IMG/VR virus record: IMGVR_UViG_2848092901_000003
Location: 18,022-82,021 of that record
Origin: a virus
Taxonomy: Duplodnaviria > Caudoviricetes
DNA length: 64,000 nt
Direction: 5' to 3' (one strand)
Shown here piece after piece: positions 32,436 to 57,601 of this stretch. A program made the position numbers and the translations under genes. Numbering within the stretch: position 1 is the stretch's first letter; every line of letters starts with the position of its first letter. The notes under the pieces were generated by a model, which was not told where the DNA came from, made no database searches, and saw only the letters and a list, made by a program, of their open reading frames with translations.

Positions 32436-33392
32436 TTAGTCATCCCAAAACATTCTGCTGGGAAGAAAATAGGTTTCAAATTTCCTGGAAAGTCCTAGAA
32501 TTCCAAATACATCTTTAAGTCTTTTTTTATCGTCTTCACTATAATAATAAATAATCCATTTTGATGTTGGCTTTATTTCTTCAGCAATTCGCAAGAGATA
32601 AGGAGTGTCTACATTCCCAAACGACAAACCTATGGATACTACTTGCTCTATATCTTTTAGACTTGAAAAAAACGATTCATTTCTCGATATAATTGCATCC
32701 GTGTCTTTATATAATGACGAGCAAAATTTTGCTATCGCGGAGCATATACTTTCTTCCCATTCTACGAACTCTTCACTTGCACACTGTGCTCTTCGTTTGT
32801 AATAATCTATAATAAATTTATTTCCATGCCCCATGATGGGTGGTATTGCAGAGCATGATGGTACTCCTCCATGCAAGTGAAGAACTGTTTTTACCCCATA
32901 TACCCGCTCTAGGACATCTGTATAATTAAAATTAATGAAAATATCAGAACAATTTCCTATGAAACTCTTTTTAATGGGGCACACACCTGATGTATCTATA
33001 GACTCTAACCACTCAAGTACATATTTCTGTAAATCTGAAGAAAACCCATACTGTTCCTTCCAGTGAAGATCCAGAGTATATTTTATACCTTCTTCTGGCA
33101 TTTGCTCTGCAAGGGAACTTGCCATATCGTGCATTCCTTCTACATCTGGGTTACCCATTTCTTCCTCAAATGTTTGCCATAAATCTTTTAGCACTGATTT
33201 TTTCCATCTTTCTTGTGCCGCTTCAGTGTACCAAGGCTCTGTATCATCTAAAGGCTGAATGTTATACATAGCCTCAAAATCCGTTAGAAATGACTCATGA
33301 TGCGTTTCTAAGAAACTTCTGAACTCAGAATATGGAGTTCTAATACCATGCTGTATGTCGAAACCGTTTCCTACCAAATACAATGTTTTCAT
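32436..33392 (-). CDS. abiH: AbiH-family abortive infection protein
   Basis: LYLVGNGFDIQHG..T.Y.EF, INFNYTD, LHLHG and IGLSFGNVD motifs; AT-rich. Confidence 0.85.
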   Translation of the reverse strand: MKTLYLVGNGFDIQHGIRTPYSEFRSFLETHHESFLTDFEAMYNIQPLDDTEPWYTEAAQERWKKSVLKDLWQTFEEEMGNPDVEGMHDMASSLAEQMPEEGIKYTLDLHWKEQYGFSSDLQKYVLEWLESIDTSGVCPIKKSFIGNCSDIFINFNYTDVLERVYGVKTVLHLHGGVPSCSAIPPIMGHGNKFIIDYYKRRAQCASEEFVEWEESICSAIAKFCSSLYKDTDAIISRNESFFSSLKDIEQVVSIGLSFGNVDTPYLLRIAEEIKPTSKWIIYYYSEDDKKRLKDVFGILGLSRKFETYFLPSRMFWDD

Positions 33393-48644: not shown

Positions 48645-48785
48645 ACAATGTCAAGTGATGAATTAAAAAAAGCTATCAAAGAAATCCTTCTTCGATAGCA
48701 GCGTATTCAACATCTATTCACATTTCCTGCCTTGCGTTCTTCGAGCTGATGAAATATAATAAGAAATGTTGTCGGAGGTGCGAAT

Positions 48786-48959
48786 ATGGACTACATGACG
48801 CTCAAAGAGGCAAGCGAAAAATGGGGCGTTTCGTCCCGACAGATAAATTATTACTGCACCGATGGACGCATCCCCGGTGCTGTCAAAATGGCCGGTGTCT
48901 GGCTGATCCCCAAGGAGGCAGAGAAGCCAAAGGACAGACGGTATAACGAAAGCAGGTGA
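48786..48959 (+). CDS. Excisionase-like HTH DNA-binding protein (57 aa, missed by ORF track)
   Basis: MDYMTLKEASEKWGVSSRQINYYCTDGRIPGAVKMAGVWLIP; GGAGG SD. Confidence 0.8.
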   Translation: MDYMTLKEASEKWGVSSRQINYYCTDGRIPGAVKMAGVWLIPKEAEKPKDRRYNESR

Positions 48960-48963
48960 TACA

Positions 48964-49674
48964 GTGCTGCATATAGCAATTTGTGATGATGAAAAAGACT
49001 TTGTTCAGTATTTGACCGATTTACTGAACCAATACAGCAAGGAAACAGGACGGGACATAAAGATTACCCCGTACTATGACGGTATGGAGCTGATTGAAAA
49101 ATACGATCCAACCATAGACCTGATTTTCCTTGATATTCAAATGAAGGTGGTGGACGGACTTCATGCTGCCGAGCGTATCCGGCAAATGGACGAAACCGTG
49201 GGCATTATTTTTCTCACTACTCTTACACAGTATGGGCTTGAGGGATATAAATACCATGCGACGAACTACATCATTAAGCCCATGAAATATGCCCGGCTCA
49301 AATCAGAAATGGACAAATTCTTGGAGCGCAGCCAGAAAGAAGATACCCCCTCTCTGGTGATTACCAACGATACCGGCAAATATAAGGTGCCGCTAAAATC
49401 AATTCGATATGTTGAAACATATAACCGCAATCTGATGTTCCATACCGAGCAGGAAAATATTATCTGCTATAAGAGCATGAAAGAAGTGGAACGGGAGCTT
49501 TGCGACAAAGACTTTGTGCGCTGCCATACCAGCTACATTGTCAATCTGTTCTATGTGAAAGGCATCAAGAAGCTGGACATTGAATTGATTACAGGCGAGA
49601 TCATTCCCATCAGCCAGCCGAAACGGAAAGAATTTATGGAACGGCTGACGGACTATTGGGGGGATATGCTGTAA
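48964..49674 (+). CDS. LytTR-family response regulator
   Basis: IAICDD, LIFLDIQM, FLTT, YIIKP and FVRCHTSYIVNL. Confidence 0.93.
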   Translation: MLHIAICDDEKDFVQYLTDLLNQYSKETGRDIKITPYYDGMELIEKYDPTIDLIFLDIQMKVVDGLHAAERIRQMDETVGIIFLTTLTQYGLEGYKYHATNYIIKPMKYARLKSEMDKFLERSQKEDTPSLVITNDTGKYKVPLKSIRYVETYNRNLMFHTEQENIICYKSMKEVERELCDKDFVRCHTSYIVNLFYVKGIKKLDIELITGEIIPISQPKRKEFMERLTDYWGDML

Positions 49675-49959
49675 TGTGGTTATATCAAGTGCTCGACATA
49701 ACAGCAACGCTGACAGAATCTTTGGGACTGTATTTATTCAGTATTTGTTTTTGCAAAGAACCACGGTATCGTGCTTCTGTAAATAGATGGCTTATAACAG
49801 GTATAAGTTTTTTGTGTGCGTATACATTGACATGGTTTTCTGAACTTGGCGCACTCAAAGCGCCTTTTCTTCTTACGATTTATCTTGTCCTTTTGAAAGT
49901 TTGTTATAGAGATTCTGTCTATCAATGTGCTGTTGCTGAAGAACTGAATTATATTGCAA
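49674..49959 (+). pseudogene. Truncated membrane sensor kinase (N-terminal TM region only)
   Basis: ATG overlaps the regulator stop; about 95 hydrophobic codons, then reads into the antisense of an HTH gene. Confidence 0.7.
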
Positions 49960-50112
49960 CTTGTTCTCGATATTCGCAAGGTAGCGCGGGGAAATATATA
50001 ACTCGTCGCTTACCTTTTTGCGGCTCTCGCCGTATTCATTTCTCGCGGCTTTTATAGCTGCCCCGAAAGCCTTAAAGTCGTACAATGGTACGGGTCTTTT
50101 TGCCATTTTCAT
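49960..50112 (-). pseudogene. Truncated XRE/Tn916 Orf9-like HTH regulator
   Basis: FKAFGAAIKAARNEYGESRKKVSDELYISPRYLANIENK; breaks right after ENK. Confidence 0.75.
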
Positions 50113-50199
50113 TCACCCTGTTACATTTTACAGTTCACCTTTCTTTTTGGATATGTCCACACAATTCATATCATTAGGTTAAATACTTCCTGTTGTGTA

Positions 50200-50228
50200 T
50201 TGACAGTAGACTGATTTTCTGATAAAAT
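50200..50228 (+). promoter_or_regulatory. Consensus sigma-A promoter
   Basis: TTGACA (50200-50205) - 17 nt - TAAAAT (50223-50228). Confidence 0.85.
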
Positions 50229-50256
50229 AAAATTTATGTAAAAGGAGGCGGCGTTT

Positions 50257-50283
50257 ATGTTGCATAGCATGCGTATTAGATAA
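50257..50283 (+). CDS. Leader peptide MLHSMRIR (ErmDL-like)
   Basis: AGGAGG SD at 50243-50248, ATG 50257, TAA 50281; R-x-R motif at the C-terminus. Confidence 0.75.
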   Translation: MLHSMRIR

Positions 50284-50286
50284 GCA

Positions 50287-50327
50287 TTGAAAAAAAGGAT
50301 TTTCCCATTTTCAACATGGGCTTTTTT
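50287..50327 (+). terminator. Attenuator/terminator with alternative pairing
   Basis: CCCAT/ATGGG hairpin + T6; competing TTGAAAA (50287-50293) / TTTTCAA (50308-50314) stem. Confidence 0.6.
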
Positions 50328-50439
50328 GTCATGCTTATTTTGCGGATGCTATACAAAAAACTAACGACGTATAGATATAGTATAGACATAGTGCAAGCTA
50401 TGCCTTAGTTTTGTTGTACTGCTCTGTGCATTTTTTGGG

Positions 50440-50690
50440 TAGGGAAACCACCGGCTGTGCCGGTGGAGGTACCCCGTAAAAAAGCTTTAGCTTCAAGCAT
50501 CGAGCGAAGCGAGCTGCTAACAGCAAATTATCAGTGAAGAAAGACTTGCATTAGAACAGCGGCTGCCCGTTTACGGGCTGCGGGGCAAATGATGCGGGTG
50601 AAATAAAATTCAGTGCGTCTTGAGACGCATGCCGGTAATAGGCCCTTATAGGGCCAACTCAAGCCACCGGCTTAGCCGGTGGTTATGACT
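50440..50690 (+). mobile_element. Internally deleted IS200/IS605-type element (non-autonomous)
   Basis: Terminal hairpins CCACCGGC-TGT-GCCGGTGG (50448-50466) and CCACCGGC-TTA-GCCGGTGG (50664-50682); PFTG-coding remnant at 50567; no transposase ORF. Confidence 0.6.
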
Positions 50691-50716
50691 TGTGTAAAAA
50701 GGACGAGTGAAATATA

Positions 50717-50902
50717 ATGCTTAAAAAATATTGGATAAAATGTCCGATTTGTAACGGAAAGACGAGAGTTCAAGTATTTCATAATACTGTATTAAAAGAT
50801 TTTCCTCTTTTCTGCCCTAAATGCAAATTGACGCATATCATTGATGTAGAAAAATTAGAGATTGTAATCAAAAATACAGAAAAACAAACTTTTATTATTT
50901 AG
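50717..50902 (+). CDS. Cysteine-rich KTR domain protein
   Basis: WIKCPICNGKTRVQV..T.LKDFPLFCPKCK. Confidence 0.9.
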   Translation: MLKKYWIKCPICNGKTRVQVFHNTVLKDFPLFCPKCKLTHIIDVEKLEIVIKNTEKQTFII

Positions 50903-50918
50903 AAGAAAGGATATAAAA

Positions 50919-51902
50919 ATGAAACGTTTACCTAAATATACGCCTGCGGAAGTACGGAATGATCCATACGGATTTACTTACAAAGAAATGTCGGAAGTTA
51001 TTGGCGAGAATGAAGCAAAAGCCTTATATGAAGAATTATATAAGCAATTACCACGCAAAAAAAATCTATCAATGTTGGTAAAAAATATTTGCAAAAGCAG
51101 TGATACTGAAAAGTATGTTTACGAACTGAAAGACAACAAATACATTGAAACGGTTTTTATCAAGCGGCGAGATGGTGGAACTGTTTGCGTGAGCACACAA
51201 GTCGGTTGTCCTGTTGGTTGTATTTTTTGTGAGTCCGGGCGAAATGGCTTTGTTCGTAATCTAACATCGTCAGAAATCGTACAACAGATTATATTGTTGC
51301 GTCGAAAAGTAAACCGTATCGTTTTTATGGGTATGGGAGAGCCTTTATTCAATTATGACAACTTGATAAAAGCAATCCATATTCTCCGAGATAGATATGG
51401 GCTCAACTTTCCAACCGACGGCATTACCATATCAACAGTTGGTCCGGTCGATCAATTAAAAAAATTGCGCGAGGAACATCTTAAAATTCAGTTGACAATA
51501 TCTTTACACGCAGCAACACAATCTGCAAGAAATCGTATTATTCCTCACATGCGCATATATGCTATTGAAGATGTTGTTAAGCAAGCCTTATCCTATTCTG
51601 AAAGGCATAATCGCAAAATTGTCTTTGCGTATTTGCTTTTACCGGGTATAAATGACCGGCCCTCAGATGTAAGACAACTTGCAAAATGGTTTCGGGGCAA
51701 AAAAGTTATGATTAACGTGTTACAATACAACCCAACAAGCAATTCAAGAATTAAAGCACCACAGAAACGGGAAATAGTTGCATTCAAACATCAATTAGAG
51801 CAAGCAGGACTTGAAGTTACTATGAGAGTTTCTCATGGCAGAGAGATTAACGCGGCTTGTGGACAGTTAGCTAACACATATAATAAATTCAAAAAAAAAT
51901 GA
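50919..51902 (+). CDS. Divergent Cfr/RlmN-family radical-SAM RNA methyltransferase
   Basis: CVSTQVGCPVGCIFC (CxxxCxxC), MGMGEPL, SLHA and INAACGQL with the catalytic Cys; short N-terminus; AT-rich. Confidence 0.9.
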   Translation: MKRLPKYTPAEVRNDPYGFTYKEMSEVIGENEAKALYEELYKQLPRKKNLSMLVKNICKSSDTEKYVYELKDNKYIETVFIKRRDGGTVCVSTQVGCPVGCIFCESGRNGFVRNLTSSEIVQQIILLRRKVNRIVFMGMGEPLFNYDNLIKAIHILRDRYGLNFPTDGITISTVGPVDQLKKLREEHLKIQLTISLHAATQSARNRIIPHMRIYAIEDVVKQALSYSERHNRKIVFAYLLLPGINDRPSDVRQLAKWFRGKKVMINVLQYNPTSNSRIKAPQKREIVAFKHQLEQAGLEVTMRVSHGREINAACGQLANTYNKFKKK

Positions 51903-51929
51903 TTAAAAGTGCCAGACGCATAGACGCAG

Positions 51930-51977
51930 AGCCGATAACGCATTAGGTCAAAAAACCTATGTGTTATCGGCTTTTTT
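51930..51977 (+). terminator. Rho-independent terminator after Cfr/RlmN-like gene
   Basis: AGCCGATAAC / GTTATCGGCT stem + T run. Confidence 0.8.
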
Positions 51978-52375
51978 ATTTAATATTGCGCAAAAGCCGC
52001 TGTTCCCTATTATAGAATGGATTGCGGGTAGTGTATTAAAGTCGCCCTTTTTTAAGGATACGGCGGTATCGGGGAGGTATCGCCGTGTCCATTTTTATTT
52101 ACTGTAACCCGCCTAATGCTTTGCGGTCAAAAAAAGCTATGCTCCGCAAGCGGGATATTCCGGCTATGAATGTGAACTGTCAATACATTTAGCTACTGCT
52201 TACATTTCCTTTGCGCCCGTCCGCGTCTTGCGGACGGGCGCATTTTGCTTTTTTCAACTTTTTTCTGAAAAGCGCACTCAAGAGCCATCTCCCGAACGGG
52301 TACGGAGCGAAAGGGGCAGAGAGGACAAGCCCTTAACTCCCGTCCTCTACTCCACGCGGGAAGGAGGTGAACTCT

Positions 52376-52813
52376 ATGGAGCTATCTTCTTCCGACAAGG
52401 AAAGAATACAACATCAGTACGACGCATTAGCAAAGAAAACTTTGGTCGGCGAAGCGAAAAGCCACCGCCGCACTCTTGCGAAACGCGCAGCACGCGAAGT
52501 TACTTTTTCGGATTTGAGCGAAAGCGAACTCGCGCAGCTTTTCACAACGGACGAATACGAAAGCGATTATTTCCGTTTTCAAGTGTCCGGCTTTGATGTA
52601 CTCGTCAAAAATGAACTGCTTGCCGAAGCCCTTAACGCTTTGCCCGAAAGGAAACGCGACATTATCCTTTTGTCCTACTTCTTGGATATGAGCGACGCGG
52701 AAATTGGCGAACTGCTGAATGTTGTACGCACGACGGTTTTCCGGCACAGGAAATCCGCGCTTGCGAAAATCAAACAGTATTTGGAGGGAAAAGCAGATGA
52801 TGAATACCGTTAG
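52376..52813 (+). CDS. Sigma-70 region-4 protein (Tn916 Orf7-like)
   Basis: LAEALNALPERKRDIILLSYFLDMSDAEIGELLNV.R.TV. Confidence 0.88.
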   Translation: MELSSSDKERIQHQYDALAKKTLVGEAKSHRRTLAKRAAREVTFSDLSESELAQLFTTDEYESDYFRFQVSGFDVLVKNELLAEALNALPERKRDIILLSYFLDMSDAEIGELLNVVRTTVFRHRKSALAKIKQYLEGKADDEYR

Positions 52814-53039
52814 GAAGTCTGAAAATCTGTTGCCGTTCCCTGTCATTTCCGCAGCGGCAAACGGCGACACAACCGCCATGTGCGCGATCTTGAAGCACTA
52901 CGAGGGTTACATAGCGAAACTTTGTACCCGCACGCTGAAAGACGACGCGGGCAATACCTATTCCTATGTGGACGAGGAAATGCGTAACAGGCTGCAAGTG
53001 CGCCTTATTACCCGCACCCTTGCTTTTCATGTAGGATAA
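52797..53039 (+). CDS. Helix-turn-helix protein (Tn916 Orf8-like)
   Basis: LLPFPVISAAANGD..A...ILKHYEGYI..L..R..VDEEMR.RL. Confidence 0.88.
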   Translation: MMNTVRKSENLLPFPVISAAANGDTTAMCAILKHYEGYIAKLCTRTLKDDAGNTYSYVDEEMRNRLQVRLITRTLAFHVG

Positions 53040-53671: not shown

Positions 53672-53748
53672 TGCATTAGGCGGCGGGATATGGTATAATG
53701 ATAGCAACACATTATACCTGTTTATTCGGCTGTCGGAAAGGAGGACTA

Positions 53749-55422
53749 ATGTTACAGTCGAATAAAATCACCGCCCTTTACTGCCGTTTAAGTCAAGAGG
53801 ATATGCAAGCCGGAGAAAGCGGAAGCATACAGCACCAAAAAATGATACTTCAACGCTATGCGGACGAACACCATTTTTTGAACACAAAGTTTTTTGTGGA
53901 CGACGGATTTTCCGGCGTGAGTTTTGAGCGCGAGGGGCTGCAAGCGATGTTGCAGGAAGTGGAAGCCGGACGAGTGGCGACGGTCATTACCAAAGACCTT
54001 TCCCGTCTTGGCAGAAACTATCTGAAAACGGGCGAACTCATAGAGATTGTATTTCCCGAAAACGGAGTACGCTATATCGCGATCAACGACGGAGTTGACA
54101 CAGCGCGGGAGGATAACGAGTTTACCCCCTTGCGGAACTGGTTTAACGAGTTTTACGCCCGCGACACAAGCAAGAAAATCCGCGCAGTTAAACAGGCACA
54201 GGCGCAAAAAGGCGAGCGCGTCAACGGGGAATATCCATACGGCTATATCCCAGACCCGAACAACCGCCACCACCTTATACCCGACCCGGAAACCGCGCCG
54301 ATTGTCAAACAGGTTTTCGCTATGTTTGTTAGCGGCGTGCGTATGTGCGAAATCCAAAAATGGCTTGCGGAAAACAAAGTCTTGACGATTGGAGCGTTGC
54401 GCTATCAGCGTACAGGACAGGCGCGGTATCAGCGGGCAATGATCGCCCCCTATACTTGGCCGGACAAAACGCTCTATGACATATTAGCAAGGCAGGAATA
54501 TTTAGGGCATACCATAACCGCGAAAACTCACAAGGTATCCTACAAGTCGAAAAAGACCCGGAAGAACGAAGAAGAACAACGCTATTTCTTCCCAAACACC
54601 CATGAGCCGCTTGTTGACGAGGAAACCTTTGAACTTGCGCAAAAGCGGATTGCTACCCGCCACCGCCCGACAAAAGCAGCGGAGATTGATATTTTTTCCG
54701 GCTTGCTGTTTTGCGCTGGTTGCAGACATAAGATGTATTACCAACAGGGCGTAAATATCGAGCCGCGCAAGTTTTCCTATTCTTGCGGCGCATGGCGCAA
54801 CAGGGCAAGGACAGGCAGCGAGTGTACCTCTCATTATATCCGCAAAAACGTACTTCTTGATTTAGTGCTGGAAGATATGCGGCGGGTTTTGCGGTATGTT
54901 AAGGAACACGAACAGGACTTTATCTGTAAAGCTACCGAGTACGGCGACATGGAAGCGAGAAAGGCATTAGCGCAGCAGCAAAAGGAACTTTTCAAAGCAC
55001 AGGCGCGTATGACCGAACTTGACACGCTTTTCCGCAAGCTGTATGAGGACAACGCATTAGGCAGACTGACAGATGAACGGTTTGTGTTTCTAACTTCCGG
55101 CTATGTGGACGAAAAGAAATCCCTTGCCGCAAGGATAGACGAGTTACAACAGCAGATCGCAACCGTTACCGAGCGAAAAAGGGATATATCAAGGTTTATT
55201 CAGATTGTCGGGAAATACAGCGACATACAGGAATTGACCTATGAAAACGTCCATGAGTTTATCGACCGTATTTTGATACATGAATTAGACCGGGAAACCA
55301 ACACCCGGAAAATCGAAATCCATTATAGCTTTGTCGGACAGGTTGATACCGAGCAGGAGCCGACGCAAGTTGTCAACCATGACCGCCGCAACATGGTAGA
55401 TGTAAAAAGTATCGCTATCTAA
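53749..55422 (+). CDS. TnpX/TndX-like large serine recombinase
   Basis: ALYCRLS, TKDLSRLGRNY, NEFYARDTSKKI, Zn ribbon and C-terminal coiled coil. Confidence 0.93.
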   Translation: MLQSNKITALYCRLSQEDMQAGESGSIQHQKMILQRYADEHHFLNTKFFVDDGFSGVSFEREGLQAMLQEVEAGRVATVITKDLSRLGRNYLKTGELIEIVFPENGVRYIAINDGVDTAREDNEFTPLRNWFNEFYARDTSKKIRAVKQAQAQKGERVNGEYPYGYIPDPNNRHHLIPDPETAPIVKQVFAMFVSGVRMCEIQKWLAENKVLTIGALRYQRTGQARYQRAMIAPYTWPDKTLYDILARQEYLGHTITAKTHKVSYKSKKTRKNEEEQRYFFPNTHEPLVDEETFELAQKRIATRHRPTKAAEIDIFSGLLFCAGCRHKMYYQQGVNIEPRKFSYSCGAWRNRARTGSECTSHYIRKNVLLDLVLEDMRRVLRYVKEHEQDFICKATEYGDMEARKALAQQQKELFKAQARMTELDTLFRKLYEDNALGRLTDERFVFLTSGYVDEKKSLAARIDELQQQIATVTERKRDISRFIQIVGKYSDIQELTYENVHEFIDRILIHELDRETNTRKIEIHYSFVGQVDTEQEPTQVVNHDRRNMVDVKSIAI

Positions 55423-55948: not shown

Positions 55949-57601
55949 TTACGCTGCAATCTCCGGGATTTCCCCGACAAAGTTATAAACAATTCTGACT
56001 TCCTGCACCTTCTGACCGTCCACCTTCTTAACCTCGCCGATCAGGATTTTGCTGATAAGCCGGTTCAGTACGGACTCGTCCAGTTCCGCAATGGCGGCAT
56101 AGCGCCGGATTTCCTTGATAAAGGTTCGGACTTCGCTTTCCTGTGCGTCCGCCCGGCTCTGCATCACCGCCAGATCGTGCAGGCGTTTCTGATTGGCTTC
56201 CTGCTCCTGTTCCAGCGCCGCCGTCAGCTTCATAAACCGCTGCTCGGTGAGGACGCCTTTGGCCTTATCGGTGTACAGGCTCAAAAACATCCCGTCAATT
56301 TCCTGATTCCGGTCTTCCAGCCGTTTCCGTTCCTTCTCTGTCTGGGAAGCGTCCACCAGATACCGGCGCTCCATCCGGCTGCTGAGCCGCTGGTAGAACG
56401 CATCGGCGTCCTTCATGGCCTGCGCCGCCAATTCCTGTATATCCTTCAGCACCAGATTGTACAAATCCCTTGCCTCAATCTTGTGGCTGGTACAGGCGTT
56501 CTTGCCCAGCCGGTTGTAAGTCTGGCAGATATAGTATGCCCTGTCAATCGGCTCCCGCATTTCGCCGGTGAAGCGGTTCTTCCCGGTTCTGCCGACCTTT
56601 TCATACCGCACCTGCATGGACTTCCCGCAGGTGGCGCAGTAGACAAGCCCGTGGAACAGGTTATAGAAGGGGCAGGCGTTGCCTTTCATAATGGTTGGCC
56701 TGCGGTCAATGATGTCCTGTACCTGTTCCCATTCCTCCGGCGTCACAATCGCTTCGTGGCAGCCCTCGATGACCTCCCAATCCTCACGGGGGATAATGTC
56801 ATAAGTGTTGGAGCGGATGCCTTTCTGGTGTGTCCGGCAGACAAGATGTGCGCCTTTATAAAAGGGATTTCTCAGGATATGGCTGATCCTTGCGCTCCCC
56901 CATGAATAGTAGTTCACGTCACATTCTGTATTGCTTTTTACTCTGGTGATGGGGATTTTATCATCCATGAGCTGCTTTGCGATCCGCATACAGCCCCAGC
57001 CGTCCAGTGCCATATCATAGATTTTTCGGATCACCGGCGCAGTCTCCGGGTCAAGGATCAGATGCCCTTTGTCCTCCGGGTCACGCATCAGGCCAAGAGG
57101 CGGCTGCCCGCCGCAGAACTTTCCCTGCCGGGAACGGGTCATGCGTCCCGCCAGCACCTTTTTGGAAATATCCCGGCTGTACATATCGTTCAGGATATTC
57201 TTAAAGGGCGTGATGTCCATTTCCTGACGGGTCAGGCTGTCCACACCGTCCGTGACGGCGATATAGCGTACATTGTGTTTGGGGAAAAAGATTTCGATAT
57301 AGCTGCCAGCTTCGATATAATTCCTACCGAGCCTCGATAGGTCTTTCGTGATGACGCAGCCGATTTTCCCCGCCTCAATGTCAGCGATCATGCGCTGGAA
57401 CGAGGGGCGGTTGAAATTGCGACCCGTATAGCCGTCATCCACATAATACTCATACTGGAACATCCCATGCTTTTCTGCGAAGTCCCGGAGCATGAGTTTC
57501 TGGTTGCTGATGCTCATGCTCTCATTGTCGCCGCCGTCATCCAGAGAAATACGGCAGTAGAGAGCGGTGATTTTTTCATAGACTTGTTTTTTCCTGCTCA
57601 T
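55949..57601 (-). CDS. TnpX-like large serine recombinase
   Basis: ALYCRIS, TKDLSRLGRNY, NDMYSRDISKK and Zn ribbon CATCG..C. Confidence 0.93.
   Translation of the reverse strand: MSRKKQVYEKITALYCRISLDDGGDNESMSISNQKLMLRDFAEKHGMFQYEYYVDDGYTGRNFNRPSFQRMIADIEAGKIGCVITKDLSRLGRNYIEAGSYIEIFFPKHNVRYIAVTDGVDSLTRQEMDITPFKNILNDMYSRDISKKVLAGRMTRSRQGKFCGGQPPLGLMRDPEDKGHLILDPETAPVIRKIYDMALDGWGCMRIAKQLMDDKIPITRVKSNTECDVNYYSWGSARISHILRNPFYKGAHLVCRTHQKGIRSNTYDIIPREDWEVIEGCHEAIVTPEEWEQVQDIIDRRPTIMKGNACPFYNLFHGLVYCATCGKSMQVRYEKVGRTGKNRFTGEMREPIDRAYYICQTYNRLGKNACTSHKIEARDLYNLVLKDIQELAAQAMKDADAFYQRLSSRMERRYLVDASQTEKERKRLEDRNQEIDGMFLSLYTDKAKGVLTEQRFMKLTAALEQEQEANQKRLHDLAVMQSRADAQESEVRTFIKEIRRYAAIAELDESVLNRLISKILIGEVKKVDGQKVQEVRIVYNFVGEIPEIAA

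Follow-up and report, generated by a model that had tools for sequence, protein, structure and literature searches.

The operon studied here lies in the AT-rich part of a 64,000-nucleotide stretch of DNA from an IMG/VR virus record (the whole of this stretch is called the window below) and comprises a promoter, a short leader open reading frame (ORF), a cysteine-rich KTR gene and mrmA, a gene for a radical-SAM RNA methyltransferase (Table 1). All of these features, which an initial annotation made from the sequence had listed together with a Shine–Dalgarno site and a hairpin, are present. The explanation that we favor as a whole, and hold to be reasonably probable, is that the mrmA operon of Tn6105 has an ancestral transcription attenuator of the ErmDL/Mef(E)L type and that the allele in the window has been de-attenuated. 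Without drug the leader ORF would be translated and the ribosome released, so that a long hairpin (H1) and a distal terminator (T2) form and transcription stops at T2 before reaching the KTR gene and mrmA. With a macrolide the ribosome would stall at codons 7/8 of MLHSMRIR and hold the 5′ arm of H1; the freed 3′ arm of H1 and the 3′ half of the small hairpin at its tip would then pair with the 5′ arm and the loop of T2, and with this antiterminator formed transcription would run into the KTR gene and mrmA. In the window allele an IS200-family element would have entered the T-run of T2, the hairpin between TGCATT repeats would have been lost, and the strong promoter would drive both genes constitutively.

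We identify the radical-SAM gene of the window as mrmA, an already named macrolide-resistance gene. Its translation reads as identical to the published MrmA (WP_002584956.1 / A0A7G9G4M8, Table S4 of PMC11983580) with no difference over 327 amino acids, both genes are 984 nt long, and the published cloning primers, in their gene-specific parts, match exactly at both gene ends (50922-50941 and 51880-51902). The initial annotation had proposed an uncharacterised resistance gene and had itself named near-identity to a characterised allele as the finding that would remove the novelty. This is what we find; both the enzyme and its part in resistance had been described before, and the central novelty claim falls. 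MrmA, for macrolide resistance methyltransferase A, was described as an 'RlmN-type' methyltransferase encoded on Tn6105 in Tn6110/Tn7806 of Clostridioides difficile RT176 (Emerg Microbes Infect 2025; PMC11983580). In Escherichia coli without TolC it raised the minimum inhibitory concentration (MIC) of erythromycin from 2 to 512-1024, given as a 512-fold rise, and that of pristinamycin IA (streptogramin B) from 64-128 to 1024; no MIC increase was seen for tylosin, clindamycin, tiamulin, chloramphenicol and linezolid (PMC11983580). C. difficile isolates with mrmA on Tn6110 or Tn7806 have erythromycin MICs >256 mg/L (PMC11983580), and mrmA is also found in RT955 isolates resistant to erythromycin and susceptible to clindamycin (PMC12409861). 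Earlier k-mer studies had linked Tn6110 to azithromycin resistance, and in one 2025 paper AMRFinderPlus missed mrmA and manual screening was needed. The published experiments indicate that MrmA protects ribosomes from 14-membered macrolides and streptogramin B, presumably by methylating an adenine of the 23S rRNA, which is most likely not A2503 as modified by Cfr or RlmN.

The leader peptide MLHSMRIR matches ErmDL (MTHSMRLR; PMC4335068, PMC8298421) in six of eight residues; the same leader family includes Mef(E)L (MTASMRLR), Msr(A)L and Msr(C)L (PMC4335068). A ribosome translating ErmDL stalls when codon 7 is in the P site, and the arrest by erythromycin depends critically on Ser4 (PMC8298421). 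Homologues of mrmA with 73-100% identity are preceded by the leader, which comes in six peptide variants (MLHSMRIR, MFMLHSMRIR, MLHSIRIRK, MLHSIRIWR, MLHSVRIWR and MWYSVRIWR), all of which retain Ser4 and Arg6, while chromosomal-looking homologues of 66-69% identity are without a leader. The layout of the promoter is the same in all relatives. A short upstream ORF, a ribosome-binding site and a peptide resembling MTHSMRLR/MTASMRLR are all in place, and MLHSMRIR is recognizable as a real, conserved macrolide-arrest leader of the ErmDL/Mef(E)L/Msr(A)L type. The assignment to this family had been made in the initial annotation, and the published phenotype of mrmA is indeed macrolide resistance. 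Pattern scans for such leaders are noisy: real leaders made up 5 of 38 metagenome/viral matches in one scan and 4 of 20 in another, the remainder being mostly chance 16-21-mers. In the literature we found no mention of the leader peptide strings or of a leader of mrmA. A text search of the MrmA papers brought up no leader peptide, attenuator, KTR gene or IS200-type insertion, and the words 'leader', 'attenuat' and 'KTR' occur nowhere in the MrmA paper. The segment with the leader and H1 (50259-50436) has a weak Rfam match to Enterococcus sRNA_1300 (26.1 bits, E = 0.0046). The consensus of sRNA_1300 encodes ...SMRLR*, so that this entry, listed as a small RNA, may in reality be a leader region of the msr type.

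The attenuator was analyzed on an alignment (A4) of nine distinct leader regions from related sequences. Common to all nine are the promoter, the leader ORF, H1, a small hairpin at the tip of H1, a conserved middle hairpin and T2. The 5′ arm of H1 consists of leader codons 2-8 and the stop codon. T2 has the form GCAGGTCAAT...ATTGACCTGC followed by six or seven T, has a folding energy of -26.7 kcal/mol and is located about 30 nt 5′ of the first gene; its 5′ arm, TGCAGGTCAATGCTCA, is invariant in the nine variants and its 3′ arm varies. The initial annotation had placed a terminator with a mutually exclusive alternative stem at the tip hairpin. A hairpin is present there and passes a terminator scan; it is, however, predicted to be weak, with its U-tract engaged by an upstream A-tract, and one relative (L086; handles of this kind denote our related sequences) has a degenerate T-run there. 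The tip hairpin is thus not, as far as the alignment tells, the conserved terminator of this leader family.

When the approximately 55 nt under a ribosome stalled at codon 7 were blocked and the RNA was folded only as far as the loop of T2, the same long-range helix was obtained in all nine variants. One side of this helix is made up of the H1 3′ arm, the U-tract and the 3′ half of the tip hairpin; the other comprises the region preceding T2 together with the complete T2 5′ arm and loop. Mapped on the alignment, the antiterminator has 97.4% of the cells paired, and in its helix 1 pairing reaches 100%; two pairs there (UA/CG/UG and GC/AU) are compensatory and fall in loop positions of the resting-state hairpins. 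Double changes amount to 10 cells compared with 4.4 in shuffled alignments, a number reached in 1 of 500 shuffles, and sliding the partner strand by one to three columns reduces the pairing to 26-47%. The resting-state structure is 93.3% paired with little covariation. Mutually exclusive antiterminator and terminator structures are predicted in the nine relatives and not in the window. We infer that the nine leader regions support a three-state transcription attenuator consisting of H1 as anti-antiterminator, the antiterminator and T2.

Several points weigh against this model. T2 is more stable than the helices competing with it; the antiterminator helices add about -13 kcal/mol. Minimum-energy folds of the full-length RNA keep T2 irrespective of whether the leader is blocked and do not switch, and the antiterminator appears only in co-transcriptional (truncated) folds; as modeled, the switch therefore depends on kinetics. 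In addition the covariation comes from nine related sequences with few variable positions, and relatedness alone can exceed shuffles. Because the sample is small and the sequences are related, the covariation is supportive of the attenuator and not a proof. Two further elements considered in this region were dropped: a pairing of GCAUUGA, just past the leader stop codon, with the 5′ arm of T2 fits leader types A and B and not type C, and a second small ORF starting in the 3′ arm of H1 is not conserved in types B and C.

The attenuators of mef(E)/mel, msr(A) and erm(K)/erm(D) (PMC4335068) share with the mrmA leader a short ORF with a strong ribosome-binding site encoding a peptide of the form xxHSMRxR, a hairpin containing the leader, a distal antiterminator pairing and an intrinsic terminator before the resistance gene. 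The sequence and the helices of the mrmA leader differ from theirs, and the gene controlled encodes a radical-SAM methyltransferase instead of an Erm, Mef or ABC-F protein. Unlike these attenuators, the mrmA copy of the window is without the terminator.

At the site of T2 the window carries a GC-rich segment of 253 bp, which the initial annotation did not mention. The whole of T2 and the distal antiterminator strand, apart from the short remnant listed in Table 1, are missing from the window and the 253-bp segment is found in their place. Otherwise 100%-identical cassettes (Subdoligranulum L001, Merdibacter L006 and IMG/VR contigs) do not contain the segment and have T2. The junctions suggest an insertion into the T-run of T2 along with loss of the hairpin between two TGCATT repeats. 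The segment folds far better than shuffled sequence (z = -5.2), and an 86% copy in another Subdoligranulum record shows compensatory changes in two hairpins. Of 301 Oscillospirales genomes, 34 contain the element or its last 60 nt, in many cases at the end of a contig, and elsewhere these last 60 nt adjoin IS200 Y1 transposase genes (PF01797, 141-143 bits). We assign the insertion to the IS200/IS605 family as a transposase-less element, because it has end hairpins, is multi-copy and has its right end in common with copies that carry a Y1 transposase. Subterminal hairpins in the same orientation, the right end, the multi-copy state and the absence of a transposase gene are likewise features of the palindrome-associated elements of this family; in contrast to other non-autonomous IS200/IS605 elements, the arrival of the window copy coincides with the loss of a regulatory terminator. 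An Rfam search of the 253 bp gave no family (all matches with E >1), and a terminator scan predicted no terminator on the + strand inside it. Besides the window copy (50437-50689) we noted copies in L003 (3001-3260), L175 and L176; both full copies inspected are located directly after a terminator-type hairpin or a T-run. In 20 public runs every sampled word of 50150-51960 is present, including the insertion.

Having lost T2 and the distal antiterminator strand, and with a truncated divergent HTH regulator upstream of its promoter, the mrmA allele of the window is probably de-attenuated and constitutively expressed from this strong promoter. The truncated regulator has no more than its first 51 residues in common with the 117-120 amino acid versions of the relatives (L006, L113, L110 and L008), with a BLAST breakpoint at 49960. 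A de-attenuated allele would fit the erythromycin MICs of carriers given above. Between mrmA and the ORF upstream of it lie 861 nt in the window and likewise 861 unannotated nt in Table S4 for Tn6110; the expected figure for a T2-bearing allele is about 649 nt. This points to the same insertion in the C. difficile Tn6110 allele. This extension to C. difficile is drawn from equal spacing and not from the sequence of the allele.

The claim of the initial annotation that the gene is antibiotic-inducible becomes doubtful for the window copy, in which the conserved regulated terminator has been replaced by the IS200-type element. Nevertheless the window allele might still be inducible by macrolides, if stalling opens H1 and relieves partial termination at the tip hairpin (50304-50327) or at hairpins of the insertion, or if it stabilizes the transcript. 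The promoter, the ribosome-binding site, the leader ORF and H1 are intact and identical to those of T2-bearing alleles, the tip hairpin passes the terminator scan as mentioned, and mef(E) mutants with a deleted terminator stayed inducible, the leader affecting mRNA stability (PMC4335068). Accepting this, the window allele could still terminate in part at the tip hairpin with its T-run or at the right-end hairpin of the element, which is followed by UUAUGACUUGUGU, and a stalled ribosome could still stabilize the mRNA; each of these would count against fully constitutive expression. On the other hand, the weakness of the tip hairpin, the pairing of its U-tract and the degenerate T-run in L086 all speak against a role as terminator, a ribosome stalled at codon 7 would reach only to about 50290 and make no contact with the tip hairpin, and the partner strand of the antiterminator is deleted. 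We therefore regard residual inducibility as a tentative alternative, on the unlikely side, and prefer the de-attenuated allele.

A different possibility, raised already in the initial annotation, is that the leader is an inert relic of mef/msr-type cargo which never regulates mrmA, so that the promoter and the divergent HTH regulator alone set the expression. Some relatives indeed carry an operon of leader, mef(A)-like gene, KTR gene and mrmA-like gene (L108 and L109), the product of the mef(A)-like gene between leader and KTR gene reaching 497 bits on the Mef(A) model NF000245 (cut-off 675). Furthermore, neither leader nor KTR gene accompanies mrmA in Segatella copri or the chromosomal-looking homologues, and MrmA alone suffices in E. 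coli. However, the leader, H1, the antiterminator and T2 are kept before mrmA-type genes of 73-100% identity without mef. The 5′ arm of T2 is invariant and compensatory changes are seen, whereas a relic would decay, and the drug sensed by the leader family is the drug against which MrmA protects. Because the leader is kept with covariation before mef-less mrmA-type genes, we do not take it for an inert relic in the T2-keeping alleles; the idea that it never regulates mrmA appears improbable to us. The part of the earlier suggestion that stands is the link to mef-type cargo. In L108/L109 (300-2984) the order is leader MLHSIRIRK, T2, a Mef(A)-like pump of the major facilitator superfamily (407 amino acids), KTR gene and an mrmA-like gene of 78% identity; efflux and target modification are thus encoded behind one macrolide leader. 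The other forms of the operon are leader-KTR-mrmA, leader-mrmA (L086) and mrmA alone (S. copri). In the latter (Bacteroidota; L007 3951-5038) the gene is 99.6% identical, the homology is limited to window positions 50869-51956, and gene callers lengthen the ORF to 418 amino acids.

The KTR gene encodes two CxxC pairs and scores well above the cut-off of PF14205. Other KTR copies (three and seven in two Firmicute genomes; L195-L203) are located directly 3′ of diverse cargo genes, namely for Tet(M)-type ribosomal protection, a MATE pump, an ABC transporter, a class I methyltransferase and an AAA_33 kinase, and a sigma-70 region 4 gene follows the KTR gene in both cases in which the downstream ORF was scanned. 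In a Tn916-like element a KTR gene lies just before orf9, orf10 and orf7, the KTR family being at the orf6 position (PMC9137128). On these comparisons the KTR gene is a backbone gene of the Tn916/Tn1549-type accessory slot, at the orf6 position. We also considered KTR as an obligate partner of MrmA. This is ruled out by L086, which has no KTR gene, by mrmA alone in Segatella, by the activity of MrmA alone in E. coli and by KTR genes following unrelated cargo.

As to the lineage of the enzyme, the best hidden Markov model (HMM) for MrmA is that of RlmN (TIGR00048, 277.6 bits), below its cut-off of 290, and the scores with the Cfr models are far below theirs (199.5 versus 530 for NF000424; 192.9 versus 550 for TIGR04432). 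In four of four genomes tested a separate true RlmN (346-408 bits) is encoded beside the mobile gene (264-278 bits), which identifies MrmA, on these scores, as an extra, mobile copy and not as the housekeeping RlmN of the genome. The protein is 33% identical to Cfr, 36% to Cfr(C), 32.5% to Cfr(D) and 31.9% to RlmN of Staphylococcus aureus. A tree of 56 proteins places all MrmA-like sequences (62-100% identity) in a single clade (support 100), apart from the Cfr clade (support 100) and from Firmicute RlmN. The phylogeny against Cfr and RlmN that the initial annotation had proposed as a check gives MrmA a clade of its own. The view that the gene is neither a canonical cfr nor a housekeeping rlmN is borne out by the HMM scores, the tree and the coexisting RlmN. 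The highest identity among the RlmN-annotated comparators, 48.6%, is to a plasmid-borne gene labeled rlmN, the sister of the MrmA clade: 'rlmN' of Rhodobacter xanthinilyticus plasmid pEJ02 (L107 2330-3340). It lies between a TetR gene and LysR-floR and adjoins an IS1380-family transposase, and may be another mobile resistance-type methyltransferase.

An AlphaFold model of MrmA (pLDDT 84, pTM 0.86) aligns over its full length in Foldseek with RlmN structures (TM 0.80-0.85 to 6fz6 and 3rfa) and with TM 0.68 to Cfr (9p0p). The cysteines C90, C97/C101/C104 and C314 are present; with the CX3CX2C motif, the methyl-carrier and resolving cysteines and the RlmN fold MrmA has the features of a class A radical-SAM methyltransferase. 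The cluster-binding cysteines begin at residue 97, compared with 112 in Cfr and 127-129 in RlmN, in agreement with the short, unusual N-terminus noted initially; the N-terminal domain is short yet kept, with three confident helices in the model. The motifs MGMGEPL and SLHA, taken initially as RlmN-type signatures, are present too, but MGMGEPF and SLHA are found in Cfr(C) and MGMGEPL in Cfr(D), and we dropped them as markers because they do not discriminate RlmN from Cfr. MrmA thus shares with Cfr and RlmN the fold, the CX3CX2C motif, the two mechanistic cysteines and the N-terminal helical domain, and differs from these A2503 enzymes in its separate clade, its shorter N-terminus and its resistance spectrum of erythromycin and streptogramin B. 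That the gene is a divergent housekeeping RlmN (m2A2503 and tRNA A37) or an unrecognized Cfr allele (m8A2503) would agree with RlmN as top HMM, with public annotations as RlmN and with the RlmN fold and the complete set of catalytic cysteines. Set against this are HMM scores that miss the RlmN cut-off and fall far short of those for Cfr, the true RlmN coexisting in each genome tested, the separate clade and a published phenotype confined to erythromycin and streptogramin B without Cfr-spectrum resistance, and we consider a housekeeping RlmN or a Cfr allele very improbable.

The AT-rich part of the window (~32-57 kb) has 37% GC compared with 56% elsewhere. Because the protein and the neighbors match Table S4 of PMC11983580 and the primer sites match the published primers, we classify it as a Tn6110-like (CTn5/Tn6110-like) conjugative element carrying Tn6105 (PMC3158075), and the gene is mobile as had been supposed. 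Neighbors in common with Table S4 for Tn6110 are the sigma factor, the NatK-C ORF, the LytTR response regulator, a partial VirD4, SSB, Maff2, VirB6, VirB4, a CHAP protein, a DUF4366 protein and topoisomerase III, and the order sigma factor, LytTR, NatK-C, SSB, VirB6, VirB4, CHAP and topoisomerase III is the same; both gene content and gene order place the window mrmA on Tn6105 within a CTn5-like element. The sigma-factor protein 3′ of the window mrmA is the one beside mrmA in Table S4. The genome context of the window gene, a GC-rich host, differs from that in C. difficile. A GC-rich (~56%), phage-like region (1-32400) adjoins the conjugative element, with an AbiH-family gene at the boundary (32436-33392); the source record is classed as a provirus.

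Downstream of mrmA three terminators are predicted, followed by Tn916 orf7/orf8-like genes and serine recombinases. Contigs of 3.5 kb from RNA libraries (runs X4 and X20, one organism) span the whole stretch from the LytTR regulator gene through mrmA (~48735-52286) and end at ~52236-52286, at or shortly past the predicted terminator 52212-52242. These contigs show presence and neither level nor strand, and in the raw-read RNA runs X21 and X23 no read fell on this stretch. Tetracycline is said to couple drug exposure to mobilization in Tn916. By analogy the leader, the antiterminator and T2 might be a working macrolide sensor that silences T2-intact alleles of mrmA in gut commensals as long as no drug is present, read-through beyond the terminators 3′ of mrmA into the sigma, HTH and serine recombinase genes would couple macrolides to mobilization of Tn6105-type elements, and the C. 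difficile-type allele would be a constitutive derivative arisen through the IS200-family insertion. Taken together this extended proposal seems quite unlikely to us. A coupling of drug sensing to mobilization of the element is possible but unsupported because of the three terminators between mrmA and the orf7/orf8-like genes.

Table 1. Features of the mrmA locus (window coordinates)
Feature	Position	Strand	Basis or remark
Divergent Xre-type HTH regulator, truncated	49873-50112	-	Pfam HTH_19/HTH_3; comparison with relatives
Promoter: TTGACA, 17 nt, TG + TAAAAT	50200-50205 and 50223-50228	+	Best promoter-like site of the region, 11/12
Ribosome-binding site AAGGAGG	50242-50248	+	
Leader ORF MLHSMRIR*	50257-50283	+	ATG to TAA, nine codons
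Long hairpin H1 (putative anti-antiterminator)	50260-50356	+	Minimum-energy folds, -34.9 kcal/mol; pair counts
Tip hairpin of H1 (terminator of the initial annotation), then CTTTTTT	50304-50320; T-run 50322-50327	+	Terminator scan; -6.4 kcal/mol
Putative antiterminator, 5′ strand	50313-50355	+	3′ half of tip hairpin, U-tract and H1 3′ arm; folds with leader blocked
Putative antiterminator, remaining 3′ strand	50415-50430	+	Alignments to L001 and L002 and A4; rest of strand absent from window
Transposase-less IS200/IS605-family element, 253 bp, GC-rich	50437-50689	+	At the T2 site, between leader and KTR gene
End hairpins of the element, left and right	50448-50466 and 50664-50682		Same orientation
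KTR gene, cysteine-rich, 61 aa, two CxxC pairs	50717-50902	+	PF14205, 75.4 bits (cut-off 25.5); alignment A6
mrmA, class A radical-SAM RNA methyltransferase, 327 aa, 984 nt	50919-51902	+	HMM, Table S4 comparison, primers, tree, fold
Predicted intrinsic terminator after mrmA	51931-51977	+	Fold -30.9 kcal/mol, then T-run; terminator scan
Two further predicted terminators 3′ of mrmA	52056-52090 and 52212-52242	+	
Sigma-70 region 4 protein and HTH_16 protein (Tn916 orf7/orf8-like)	52376-53039	+	Pfam
Serine recombinases	53698-55422 and 55949-57601		After sigma-70/HTH_16 genes

What our analysis adds to the known gene is the conserved architecture of its predicted attenuator, the loss of this attenuator in the window allele through an IS200-type insertion and the operon variants linked to mef. 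These additions belong to a known kind of system. The 90%-identity cluster of mrmA has 1672 member sequences and the 85%-identity cluster 2429; mrmA is very common in gut metagenomes, with Clostridia, Erysipelotrichales and even Segatella as hosts. Most commensal alleles carry an intact ErmDL-like attenuator and may therefore be phenotypically silent until induced. Loss of the terminator to an IS200-type element, in the window and, judged by the spacing, in C. difficile, would explain high erythromycin MICs without induction. The leader supports macrolides as the class of drugs which the mrmA system evolved to sense, and the linkage to a mef-like pump points in the same direction.

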